Program-made: the position numbers and the translations under genes
Source: a virus
Strand: one strand, 5' to 3'
DNA length: 64,000 nucleotides
Virus record (IMG/VR): IMGVR_UViG_3300010376_000004
Notes under the pieces: generated by a model
Database searches by the model: none
What the model was told of the DNA's origin: nothing
Seen by the model: the letters and a program-made list of their open reading frames with translations, nothing else
Part shown: positions 13,345 through 18,585 of the stretch, one piece after another
Layout of the letters: each line of letters opens with the position of its first letter
Numbering within the stretch: position 1 is the stretch's first letter

Positions 13345-16300
13345 TTAGAACAAGTATCCCAGCAAGGTCAACAGCGCCGTTGCCGATGTATTGGTCGTAC
13401 CAGGGTAATTAAACCACAACATGATGGTTTGCGTCAGCCCGCCGACCACGTCCAGCATTGCGTTCTGGACGCCGAAGCTGGCGGCGGCGGCGGATACTCC
13501 GACAGGAATCACACAGAGCTGCGGCTTAGTCGACAAGATCGTTGGCGAAGTCGCAGTACCAGTCGTGCCGGCGCTGGAATGGGCAACCTGGAAATAGCCG
13601 ACTGTAGGTGATGTTGCTCCAGCGCCCGTCATCAGGATGTTGACGAAGTTGAGCCGGAAGTTGGTGGCTGGGATGCTCCATGCGCTGGTCACCGTCGCAG
13701 CCGTCGTGCCGACAAAGATCGTAAACGGGATCGGTCCAGCCGACGACGAGGCCGCAGCCGCCAACGCAATACTCGCCACGACGATCACACGCACCTGCGT
13801 AGACTGGCCGACAGTGATCGTACCACCGGGCAGGCTGACCAGAACTGTGCCTAATAATGTCGACACGGTGCCGACCGTCTGGGTTGGCGCGAGCCACACC
13901 AACTGCCCAGTTGCTGCGGTCTGGGTCGTAGTGAACACGCCAGACAAGCTAGCGATGATGGTCTGCGTCGGCGCCAGCCAAACAAGCTGTGCAGTCAATG
14001 ACGTTTGCGTTGTGACCGTAGTGCCGCCGACTGAGGCCGACACTGACACCGACACTGACACCGAGATCGTATTGCCGACCCAGACCGGCAAGCCGCTGAT
14101 GCCGCTCAAGCCAGACGCTGTCGTTGTTATGGTAATGCCTGCCACTGCAGCAACAACAGCAAGACCAGTTTGCGTGGCAGTAAATTGGGTTCCAGAACTC
14201 GCTGTCGTAAACGATAGGAACGCAGCCGTGACGACTTGCGTACCCAAGATCGTTACGACGGTCAGAACGGTAACGATAGTAGAAACCGTCCCAAGAGTAC
14301 CTACACTGGCCAACGTCTGACTTGCTGCAAGCCAATTAAGTTGCCCAGTACTACCGGCAGCTTGCGCAGTCGTTCCACCCATAACCAGAACCGGCAGCGC
14401 TAGAGTGGACGTAAAGCCACTCATGGCACTTGTCGGTGTGATGCCGCTGATCGAAACCGGCCCAGCTATGGTTACAGAACCAGTCCCTATGGCAACTGTC
14501 TGGGTGCCAAGAATAGTAACAATGGTCAGAACACTGGCGACCGTCGCAACAGTACCGATGGATGCCAGTGTCTGGCCCGGCGCCAACCAAACAGCCAGAC
14601 CCGATGTCAAGCTTGACTGAGTTGTAGTGACCGCAACACCGGCCCAGGTCGAGATCGAAACAACACCAGATACCACAACGTTCAGCGATGTGCCCGTTAC
14701 CGAAACTAAACCAGACACTACAACATTGAGTGACGTGCCAGTGACGGAGACTATGCCGCTAACGACAACATTCAACGATGTCCCAGTCACGGACACCACG
14801 TTCCCCACCGTCACCGTCATAGTCTGTGTCGGAGCGAGCCATACCGGCATGCCGGTGGTTAGTGACGACTGGGTCGTTGTTACAGCCAGTGCCGGATTAG
14901 TAACCGTAACAGTGCTGACAACGTTGACTGAACCCGTGATCGACACGCCAGGAACGACGCTGACAATTTGCGTTCCCAAGATCGTCACAATGGTGGAAAT
15001 CAGCGATAACGTTTGTGTCTGCGCCAGCCACACAAGCTGAGCCGTATTAGAGGTCTGCCCGGTAAACGTCGTTCCAGGTGCTGCGCCGCCCGCGACCACG
15101 TTAACTTGCACAGTGCTGAGAACCGTGACGATCGTTGCAACAGTCGAAACAAGTGACAGCGTTTGCGTTTGCGCCAACCATACCAACTGCGCTGTATTGG
15201 ACGTCTGTCCTGTGAAAGTAGTTCCTGGTGCCGCACCGCCGGCTACGACATTGACCTGAACAGTAGACAGCACTGTGACGATAGTGGCGACCGTCGAGAC
15301 CAGAGCCATAGTCTGCGTCGGTACCAGGATGATAGGTAAGCCGGTCGTCAGGGACGATTGCGTCACAGTGGCGCCCAATGCACTCAACGAGACAGCCGCG
15401 ACCTGACTGACGGCAACGGTGCCAAGGACGGTAACAACGGTAGAGATCAGTGACAGCGTCTGAGTCTGCGCGAGCCAAACTAGCTGCGCAGTGTTCGATG
15501 TCTGTCCAGTGAAGGTAGTCCCAGGCGCAGCCCCACCAGCCACCACGTTAACTTGAACCGTGCTCAATATCGTGACGATGGTGGCGACGGTCGAAACCAA
15601 CGCCATGGTCTGAGTCCCAACGAGAATGACGGGCAGACCGGTTGTCAGCGATGACTGGGTAACAGTGCCGCCAAGCGCACTTAATGAAACTGCCGCAACC
15701 TGACTGACCGCAACGGTACCGAGGACTGTGACAACGGTAGAAACCAGCGACAACGTCTGGGTCTGCGCTAACCAGACGAGCTGTGCTGTGTTGGAAGTTT
15801 GCCCAGTAAAAGTCGTGCCGGGCGCAGCCCCGCCCGCTACGACGTTAACCTGAACCGTGGACAGAACGGTGACGATCGTGGCAACTGTTGACACCAGTGC
15901 CATCGTCTGGGTCTGAGCCAAAATCACCGGCAATGCAGTTGAAAGTGAAGACTGCGTTATTGTTGGCGTAACTCCGCTGATCGACGCCAACACCGACACC
16001 CCCGGCACAACCGTAACAACTTGCGTTCCTAGGATCGTTACGATGGTTGAAACCAGAGACAATGTCTGCGTCTGGGCCAACCAAACGAGCTGGGCCGTAT
16101 TGGAAGTCTGGCCGGTAAATGTGGTTCCTGGCGCGGCACCGCCAGCGACAACGTTCACTTGAACAGTGCTGAGAACAGTTACGATAGTTGCGACCGTCGA
16201 AACCAACGCCATCGTCTGCGTCTGCACCAAGATGACAGGCAGACCAGTGCTCAATGAAGACTGGGTTATGGTATTCGGCAGACTCGAGATCGAAACCAGA

Positions 16301-18585: not shown

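Follow-up and report, generated by a model that had tools for sequence, protein, structure and literature searches.

A giant fibre-like protein with a charge-free stalk and a linked GT41 glycosyltransferase in an uncultured soil podophage

The IMG/VR virus record IMGVR_UViG_3300010376_000004 provides a stretch of 64,000 nucleotides, referred to below as the window. It covers almost the entire genome of an uncultured podophage from soil, a relative of the HTVC023P group. An open reading frame (ORF) at positions 13345-18585 of its minus strand translates to 1746 amino acids (1746 codons plus stop), most of which belong to a single segment devoid of Asp, Glu, Lys and Arg. We consider it probable, if by no means certain, that this protein is a trimeric, heavily O-glycosylated virion fibre, whose uncharged stalk serves as the dedicated substrate of a GT41 glycosyltransferase encoded by the same phage. 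The evidence that bears directly on this reading comprises the composition of the protein, the family to which it belongs, the fold of its C-terminal knob and the predicted trimer, the linkage to the GT41 gene, the catalytic residues retained by the enzyme, and the selection acting on the stalk repeats.

Composition and reality of the fibre gene

The fibre gene and its parts are arranged as follows.

13345..18585, minus strand: whole fibre gene (ORF list and translation; codon-position bias of the differences among repeats)
18451..18585, minus strand: N-terminal ~45 residues with five of the nine charges, the proposed virion-attachment end (charge positions)
13792..18459, minus strand: charge-free stalk, residues 43-1598, ~27 units of ~50 amino acids (composition, motif scan)
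15031..17283, minus strand: central array, residues 435-1185, ten protein-identical 40-residue blocks with scrambled codons
14662..14796, minus strand: three tandem 15-residue repeats VSVTGTSLNVVVSG[ILV], ~residues 1264-1308 (Tandem Repeats Finder, period 45 at 14656-14753)
13348..13806, minus strand: predicted TNF/C1q-like jelly-roll knob, residues ~1594-1746, ending in GYLF (AlphaFold2, AF2, and structure comparison)

The chain is dominated by Thr (340 residues), Val (290), Ala (196), Ser (192), Leu (172), Gly (166) and Gln (121), and other residue types are scarce (Asp 4, Tyr 4, Arg 3, His 2, and Glu, Lys and Cys 1 each). The nine charged residues (D/E/K/R) among the 1746 are found at positions 3, 7, 12, 31 and 42, and then at 1599, 1644, 1687 and 1712, which leaves a charge-free run of 1556 residues (43-1598). 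The initial annotation, made from the sequence alone, had claimed an ORF of this length without charges between the first ~45 and the last ~150 residues, and the residue count bears this out. Other large proteins of the same phage mostly contain 10-30% D/E/K/R, so chance can be excluded as the origin of this run; at the usual content of the phage its probability is ~0.78^1556, i.e. <1e-160 by our own arithmetic.

The start codon (ATG) is preceded by a GGGGAGG Shine-Dalgarno sequence 6 nt upstream, and the stop codon of the preceding gene lies 14 nt upstream of it. The ten identical blocks of the central array are 0.70-0.82 identical in DNA (mean 0.761), with the differences among copies distributed over codon positions 1, 2 and 3 as 142/24/1124, and hence the annotated frame is the coding frame. 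Together, the strong Shine-Dalgarno sequence, the tight operon packing and the third-position bias indicate that the ORF is a real, expressed-type gene of this podophage. Collapse of the repeats during assembly is unlikely, because the copies are only 70-82% identical in DNA. The sequence of the gene is the same in contigs of four soil metagenome runs from 2017, with no variants among them (two of these runs may be the source sample).

Stalk repeats and the fold of the stalk

A motif scan of the stalk revealed 22 copies of the WLAxTQT node and five variants of the form I-L-[VA]-x-T-Q-T, 27 nodes altogether. At its end each unit has a Ser/Thr-dense patch followed by VWLAxTQT (ILVxTQT in five units). 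The spacing of WLAxTQT had been put at 45-55 residues; we found W-to-W distances of 28-103 residues, with 50 the commonest. As had also been claimed, one block recurs identically ten times, only its length is 40 residues instead of ~37, and in nine of the copies the identity extends to 50 residues.

The mean beta propensity of the stalk exceeds its helix propensity, and 169 of 1538 19-residue windows score above 1.6 on the Kyte-Doolittle scale. In homologues (see below) Ser and Thr recur with period 2, as expected of beta strands with a single hydroxyl-bearing face, unlike in the dominant unit of the fibre studied here, where the period is near 3. The stalk may form a beta-rich trimeric shaft. 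Of the known stalk types, a collagen-like one as in BclA is ruled out by the Gly content (9.5%), the depletion of Gly at lag 3 (Gly-Gly enrichment 0.44) and the lack of a G-X-Y pattern. A classical mucin-like scaffold, one of the possibilities raised by the initial annotation, does not fit either: a disordered Ser/Thr/Pro domain is at odds with a Pro content of 3.3%, with a very hydrophobic chain (grand average of hydropathy +0.88) and with repeat residues that are invariant, under extreme purifying selection, while their synonymous sites are random. The three 15-residue repeats (VSVTGTSLNVVVSGx) recall the shaft repeats of the adenovirus-type triple beta-spiral, with no match in Pfam. Searches of the ESM Atlas returned a weak lead (score 0.77) to a DUF6385/Adeno_shaft cluster, in which Adeno_shaft is found in 13% of members, and otherwise only viral clusters annotated as "hypothetical" (0.83-0.85).

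The C-terminal knob and its predicted trimer

For the last 250 residues AF2 (54-row alignment) predicted a beta-sandwich at residues ~1594-1746, with a predicted local distance difference test score (pLDDT) mostly of 80-90. An exhaustive structural comparison (VIA), with ~115-130 aligned residues, placed this model closest to 4-1BBL (Z 10.6, root-mean-square deviation 2.9, 125 residues aligned), followed by the C1q domain of Caprin-2 (Z 8.9), a short-tail-fibre domain of a cyanophage (Z 8.8), collagen VIII NC1 (Z 8.6), a lactococcal phage receptor-binding protein (Z 8.3), and BclA-C and the C-terminal domain of F-BclA (Z 7.7 each). Foldseek searches of PDB, BFVD and AFDB (probabilities 0.8-1.0) retrieved Bdellovibrio fibre tips, BclA/BclB and C1q-domain proteins, and further matches included collagen-like proteins of giant viruses and of uncultured tailed phages. 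The jelly-roll matches of the knob span tail-fibre tips as well as capsid cement proteins. By these models, the C-terminus is a TNF/C1q-like jelly-roll of the ten-strand type.

The knob is also predicted to trimerise. The three-copy prediction scored 0.59, compared to 0.00 for the best of three controls; 20 of 30 solved homo-pairs and 1 of 23 single chains attain this mark. The partner pLDDT was at least 61, the runs shared at least 56% of contacts, and symmetric contacts were predicted also in the neck directly N-terminal to the knob, but solved structures include many TNF-like trimers, so the score may reflect likeness and is not proof. The suggestion that the ORF encodes a fibre-type protein is supported by such a C-terminal knob.

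The fibre family

A word-indexed search identified three homologues close in length to the fibre and 57 that are shorter. Every one of them comes from metagenomes, and none has a fibre-related Pfam domain, either precomputed or otherwise attached. Nearly all of them have 0.5-5% charged residues, WLAxTQ-like nodes and a C-terminus reading GYLF(P); a few exceptions look like fragments or spurious matches. The fibre of the window exceeds all other members found both in length and in the extent of its charge-free run. With a profile built from the last ~150 residues, 111 clusters were detected among 1.84 billion representatives, and in nearly all of them the domain is located at the very C-terminus. 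The common layout comprises a short N-terminus with most of the charges, a charge-poor Thr/Val/Ser stalk with a variable number of units (~1 to 27), and the C-terminal jelly-roll.

The commonest N-terminus consists of ~50 conserved residues (MADNV...AAE.IG...QRVKLV.G), for which a profile search of PDB sequences gave no match, and another type is present in the phage studied here, its sister phage L009 (IMGVR_UViG_3300046473_000190, positions 1-17834) and the homologues P0005 and P0009. Because the N-terminal type differs between phage backbones, we infer that it is the part that fits the fibre to a particular virion.

Pfam and PHROGs offered no useful family for the fibre or for eight homologues; the only PHROG matches were weak, one to a PHROG without assigned function (1.3e-5, for the fibre) and one to another PHROG (0.0077, for P0028). 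A tblastn search with the fibre, the knob and the GT41 enzyme gave no match in 50,697 GenBank phage records. Judging by these searches, the family is an undescribed one.

The GT41 enzyme and the linked sugar cassette

The genes of the window that we propose to act together with the fibre are listed below; the cassette (the last six entries) is located upstream of the capsid gene.

10021..11730, minus strand: TPR + GT41 protein O-glycosyltransferase (SPINDLY/OGT type), proposed modifier of the fibre (Pfam)
28744..30123, minus strand: HldE-like fusion of an N-terminal nucleotidyltransferase and a C-terminal PfkB sugar kinase (Pfam, NCBIfam)
28226..28747, minus strand: GmhA-like sedoheptulose-7-phosphate isomerase (SIS_2 1.3e-14; TIGR00441 gmhA 3.3e-20, which is below the curated cutoff)
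27630..28229, minus strand: short E1-alpha-like thiamine-diphosphate subunit (E1_dh 3.5e-12; pyruvate dehydrogenase E1 alpha 1.5e-23)
26607..27197, minus strand: short E1-beta-like (Transket_pyr) subunit (Pfam/NCBIfam-type match; in all six other loci with DNA)
25302..26423, minus strand: radical SAM/SPASM enzyme (48-57% identical in all six loci; a sequence search among solved structures gave no relative)
24559..25302, minus strand: methyltransferase (Methyltransf_11 4e-5)

The GT41 enzyme matches Pfam PF13844 at 5.7e-39 together with several TPR families. It is most similar to plant SPINDLY (SPY; 2.2e-79), followed by bacterial OGT (7e-55) and human OGT (7e-47), and its residues 202-564 align with residues 478-843 of SPY, i.e. 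with the whole catalytic domain. The HMW1C-type N-glycosyltransferase branch was considered and rejected (only ~1e-3 over ~90 residues; NCBIfam NGTferase 20 bits, against a cutoff of 1000). Residues K389, H219, S220 and D215 correspond to SPY K665, H495, S496 and D491, with no variation across eight phage enzymes. In SPY, K665 and H495 are essential, and enzymes of the SPY/OGT clade act on Ser/Thr of proteins (PMC9715652). The phage enzyme thus looks active. In bacterial genomes we found only distant relatives (at most ~41% identical), with no lead to a host or prophage.

Genomic neighborhood analysis revealed that in all seven loci with fibre homologues (7/7) the fibre gene is accompanied by one or two TPR-GT41 genes, E1 alpha, E1 beta, a radical SAM/SPASM enzyme and a small nucleotidyltransferase, and often also by a PfkB kinase, an AAA_33 kinase, a methyltransferase or a LamG protein. 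These loci belong to different phage backbones. In BLAST comparisons of the six that have DNA, the capsid and adaptor genes of the window are not matched, while five of its enzyme genes are: relative to the copies in the window, GT41 is 49-55%, the radical SAM enzyme 48-57%, E1 alpha 38-48%, E1 beta 43-53% and the nucleotidyltransferase part 38-48% identical. Homologues of the GmhA-like protein occur in loci L010 and L013, and the methyltransferase (DUF268/Methyltransf_11) in those of P0015 and P0028. The reverse search leads to the same association. The GT41 alignment pulled out 43 IMG/VR loci, 17 with a GT41 at least 43% identical and 26 with one at most 40% identical; an upstream ORF on the same strand with a charge-free run of 167-1127 residues is present in 14 of the 17 and in none of the 26 (0/26), with GYLF(P) as the C-terminal sequence of those inspected. 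Of the three loci that lack it, one is short with the upstream side cut off and another is the second GT41 copy on the L015 contig. The tie to the GT41 gene proposed at the outset therefore holds in every homologue locus examined as well as in the search that starts from the enzyme.

The presence of GmhA and of the HldE-like enzyme points to an NDP-heptose, and the E1-like pair, the radical SAM enzyme and the methyltransferase may add a two-carbon branch or another modification of the sugar; the set as a whole suggests a modified NDP-heptose. This gene linkage is what points to covalent glycans on Ser/Thr of the stalk.

Several loci carry two TPR-GT41 genes in or near the module (L008, 14317-17693; the P0028 locus; and IMGVR_UViG_3300027908_000024, which corresponds to L015 and L018), and such pairs could reflect either a second glycosylation step or a second substrate. 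In the window, E1 alpha and E1 beta are separated by an ORF of 163 residues (27139-27630) with no Pfam match at E 0.001 and no counterpart at that place in the six other loci. Two ORFs flank the cassette, 30101-31057 and 23680-24546, for which GT2 and GT-A labels are unsupported by Pfam at E up to 1; their sole Pfam hint is Anp1 at 0.3, and neither has a homologue in the other loci.

Identical repeats encoded by randomized DNA

Expectation from random synonymous codons drawn from the usage of the gene itself is a DNA identity of 0.751 +/- 0.030, close to the mean found among the ten blocks, and four-fold degenerate third positions agree among copies at ~0.26-0.28, the chance level. The longest exact DNA repeat in the gene measures 23 nt, compared to 21 (17-27) under random synonymous recoding; avoidance of exact DNA repeats beyond saturation was accordingly rejected. 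Codon usage is broadly like that of the other phage genes, if somewhat more even. The pattern is family-wide: independent NCBI, ENA, Logan and IMG/VR records contain as many as 12 copies of a protein-identical block, 0.71-0.80 identical at the nucleotide level, and four-fold sites are at or near chance in most of these records and above it in a few.

A related phage, L010, whose GT41 is 84.7% identical, has ten further copies of the same 28-residue block as the fibre of the window; across the combined set of twenty the protein sequence never varies, and four-fold sites are random. GT41 has changed at 15% of residues, and the radical SAM enzyme and E1 alpha at ~42%, over a span that is comparable or shorter. 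As the units remained invariant while these enzymes diverged, purifying selection must act far more strongly on the repeat units than on the enzymes. Even so, other units have been amplified in the sister phage L009, and the phage studied here and L010 consistently differ in their common unit. The knob of the L009 fibre is ~70% identical to that of the window, and another repeat unit (PVWVANPGSGSGATASATSQSAMST...) has been amplified there. Orthologous genes agree at four-fold sites at 0.29-0.44, i.e. near synonymous saturation, compared to 0.26-0.28 among repeat copies, values too close to place the amplification before or after the phage split.

The units may be frozen because they stack in register, in which case any change or charge would be repeated or mismatched along the ladder; alternatively, each unit may be a recognition module for GT41. 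Polyubiquitin genes likewise consist of tandem units that encode the same protein and differ at synonymous sites, but ubiquitin is globular and universally conserved, whereas the units described here are of low complexity and the amplified unit differs between sister phages.

Genomic context and position on the virion

The context of the module in the window is given by the following genes.

22018..22932, minus strand: major capsid protein, context marker (PHROG 371 major head protein)
12850..13335, minus strand: charge-poor protein of 161 residues directly downstream of the fibre gene (6.8% D/E/K/R)
11743..12591, minus strand: Laminin_G_3 protein of 282 residues, concanavalin-like lectin fold (Pfam E 1.2e-15; PHROG "virion structural protein")
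9297..9992, minus strand: SU10-type head-tail adaptor, context marker (Pfam 1.8e-12; 79% identical in L009)

The capsid protein is 60% identical to the major capsid protein of MW202675.1 and 40% identical to that of Pelagibacter phage HTVC023P, and a portal, a terminase and SU10-type adaptors are present as well. The fibre gene is part of the late operon, between the capsid and adaptor genes, and the matching interval of MW202675.1 contains only ~1.8 kb of small genes. L009 is syntenic with the window from a gene of 425 codons to the adaptors, and the shared run includes the fibre (1420 residues), the LamG protein (30% identical to 11743..12591), GT41 (67% identical) and the adaptor. LamG proteins are found also in loci L005 and L006. 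No match in Pfam or PHROGs and no homologue in the other loci was found for the 161-residue protein.

The argument for a structural role in the virion comes from this position between capsid and adaptor genes, here and in L009. The module is located after the capsid gene in this phage, L009, L006 and the P0028 locus, it follows genes for pectate-lyase-like (tailspike-type) proteins in L005 and L007, and it ends beside a resolvase/recombinase gene in L004, L007 and L008. At the 3' ends of L004 and L007 it adjoins, besides the resolvase, very large proteins encoded on the opposite strand (one of 1809 residues, the other of 1978 residues with an LPD38 domain); these elements may be built differently from the podophage described here.

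Other late proteins of the window are also charge-poor and Ser/Thr-rich, namely those encoded at 22949-23560 (4.4% D/E/K/R), 34554-37439 (5.0%), 20725-22002 (7.3%), 19480-20106 (7.2%) and the above-mentioned 12850-13335. Pfam has no family for any of these five, which are candidates for additional GT41 substrates or fibre partners. A fibre paralogue at 52-58 kb, suspected from a similar AT skew, was rejected, as the region holds ordinary plus-strand early genes; the block at 52700-57000 (plus strand) has a strong A-over-T skew and is unrelated to the fibre.

A model of the fibre and its alternatives

We propose that the podophage displays a long homotrimeric surface fibre, of which the 1746-residue protein is the subunit. 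Its ~45 N-terminal residues, which differ between backbones, would dock the fibre to the virion, and the stalk of ~1550 uncharged residues, rich in beta-branched side chains, would present one Ser/Thr patch per unit of ~50 residues. The C-terminal knob (~150 residues) would trimerise, probably nucleate assembly, form the distal tip and perhaps bind a ligand, by likeness to BclA, C1q, collagen VIII/X and many phage fibres. During infection, O-glycosylation of the Ser/Thr patches in the host cell would fall to the SPINDLY/OGT-type TPR-GT41 enzyme, for which GmhA, the HldE-like kinase/nucleotidyltransferase, E1 alpha/beta, the radical SAM/SPASM enzyme and the methyltransferase may supply the nucleotide sugar. 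The resulting glycan coat could keep the very hydrophobic chain soluble and would provide the virion with an electrically neutral sugar hair. A more specific version, which we put forward only tentatively, envisages such a neutral hair as a fibre with a new type of stalk and units stacked in register, which would function only in its glycosylated form, as made by GT41 with a modified NDP-heptose, and which the radical SAM enzyme might alter as well; stacking in register would account for the lack of charge as well as for the frozen repeats.

A number of observations weigh against the proposal of a glycosylated fibre. The AF2 monomer of four stalk units (52-row alignment) had a pLDDT of 56, a predicted template modelling score of 0.20 and no secondary structure. 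The similarity of the knob is at the level of fold only, its Z-scores of 7-10 are near the quoted background of the tool (Z 7-8 is common), and a Pfam search with the whole fibre at E 0.01 detected no membership in the C1q, TNF or BclA-C families. In the enzyme, the residues that contact fucose/GDP in SPY, Y744 and T748, are replaced by His467 and Ile, and the donor is thus probably different from the GDP-fucose of SPY; GmhA and the kinase are absent from some loci, and the radical SAM/SPASM enzyme could act on protein instead of sugar. The position of the gene is ambiguous between head and tail, and the case for both glycosylation and membership in the virion is a genomic one.

If the fibre were an unglycosylated, self-assembling beta-solenoid or amyloid-like structure, GT41 and the cassette would have to serve other virion proteins, host proteins or DNA. 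The hydrophobicity and high beta propensity of the stalk agree with such an assembly, the charge-poor, Ser/Thr-rich neighbours in the virion region offer possible GT41 substrates of their own, and phage sugar cassettes can, according to published accounts, serve DNA hypermodification. We nevertheless regard this as unlikely, given the strict co-occurrence of the fibre and close GT41 in both directions (7/7, and 14/17 against 0/26), the action of SPY/OGT-clade enzymes on protein Ser/Thr, and the conserved Ser/Thr-dense patch in every unit. Somewhat less credible still is modification of the stalk by the radical SAM/SPASM enzyme, with or without glycosylation, through L-to-D epimerisation or cross-links of the kind exemplified by proteusin/polytheonamide and epipeptide maturation. 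The enzyme is conserved in all six loci with DNA (two copies in L008), its weak NCBIfam matches include the peptide maturases PqqE and SkfB and sactipeptide maturases, and the uncharged V/T/A/G/N/Q composition of the stalk recalls polytheonamide precursors; on the other hand, the weak matches also comprise NirJ, MoaA and viperin-like enzymes, which act on small molecules or nucleotides, its gene usually abuts that of the nucleotidyltransferase, suggesting a shared small-molecule pathway, and thioether links are excluded by the presence of only one Cys in the fibre.

That the protein is a non-virion product, shown on or released from the infected cell as a matrix, exclusion layer or decoy, strikes us as quite improbable: in L003, L004, L007 and L008 the modules are found near resolvase/recombinase genes and small ORFs, not near recognised structural genes, but the N-terminus of the fibre does not resemble a signal peptide, in the window and in L009 the gene resides inside the late operon, and the architecture with a distal knob fits a part of the virion. 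We give hardly any credence to a membrane-inserting or channel protein (an ejection or trans-envelope conduit), in which a hydrophobic stretch of ~22 residues per unit would span the membrane. The 169 of 1538 windows above 1.6, a Trp at every unit boundary and the lack of charges would suit it, whereas a trimeric TNF/C1q-like knob is a feature of fibres, a number of units ranging from ~1 to 27 among homologues is ill-suited to a fixed topology, and the Ser/Thr period of 2 in homologues and the linkage to a cytoplasmic protein glycosyltransferase also speak against it.

Relationship to known systems and significance

The architecture predicted for the glycosylated fibre resembles that of the BclA/F-BclA hairs of Bacillus spores, with an N-terminal anchor, a Thr-rich repeat stalk of variable length and a C-terminal trimeric knob of the TNF/C1q superfamily. 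In BclA, dedicated genes provide the unusual sugars that are O-linked to the stalk, and the longer the stalk, the longer the hair (PMC12357932). The phage stalk differs in not being a collagen and the knob in lacking Pfam BclA-C/C1q membership; the structure would also belong to a phage instead of a spore, and the glycosyltransferase is a cytoplasmic GT41. The collagen-like fibres of giant viruses and uncultured Caudovirales, which are the best structural matches in BFVD, similarly combine an extended stalk with a C1q/BclB-like C-terminal domain, but their stalks are charged triple helices, whereas the stalk described here is a new, uncharged repeat type.

With SPINDLY/OGT the phage enzyme shares the TPR + GT41 architecture and the essential Lys and His-Ser; it differs in being encoded by a phage, in having only ~200 residues of TPRs, in its donor contacts (Y744 and T748 replaced), in its linkage to a heptose-type pathway instead of GDP-fucose or UDP-GlcNAc, and in that it seems dedicated to one giant substrate instead of hundreds of regulatory proteins. 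Heptose provides a link to AIDA-I, TibA and Ag43, repetitive beta-rich adhesins that are multiply O-heptosylated on Ser/Thr in the cytoplasm with ADP-heptose by AAH/TibC. A GmhA/HldE-type pathway is present in the phage as well, but its transferase is a GT41 and not a BAHT enzyme, there is no autotransporter barrel, and a trimeric TNF-like knob replaces the monomeric beta-helix passenger.

Mycobacteriophages encode glycosyltransferases that modify their own structural proteins (Freeman et al. 2023, as cited in PMC12582341). As there, a phage-encoded glycosyltransferase is proposed here to act on a structural protein of the same phage. The mycobacteriophage glycans are reportedly carried by C-terminal extensions of capsid and tail-tube subunits, and the enzymes are not known to be GT41; in the window the giant fibre is a protein of its own, accompanied by a GT41 and by genes for sugar synthesis, and the above-mentioned lack of matches to the fibre, knob or GT41 among GenBank phage records sets the module further apart. 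To our knowledge, virion glycosylation has been established in only a few phages, and we know of no phage GT41 system that has been described. The type of stalk, the use of this enzyme family by a phage and the module as such are undescribed.

The module is a compact, portable kit of six parts (fibre, GT41, nucleotidyltransferase, two thiamine-enzyme subunits and radical SAM enzyme), and dozens of uncultured phages from soil and groundwater carry it although their capsids are unrelated. It offers in the fibre and GT41 a natural pair of one enzyme and one substrate for the question of site choice in OGT/SPY-type enzymes, and in the cassette a probable route to an unusual nucleotide sugar. The charge-free segment of 1556 residues tests ideas on solubility and on the design of fibres, and the protein-identical repeats, with DNA as different as the code allows, bear on the stability of repeats and on the strength of purifying selection. 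If the stalk is indeed a glycoprotein stacked in register, a neutral sugar hair, encoded by a portable gene module, would be described for the first time from a tailed phage. For the biology of these phages, a glycosylated fibre would extend the few known cases of virion glycosylation, and a neutral glycan hair could affect the sticking of soil phages to minerals, organic matter and hosts.

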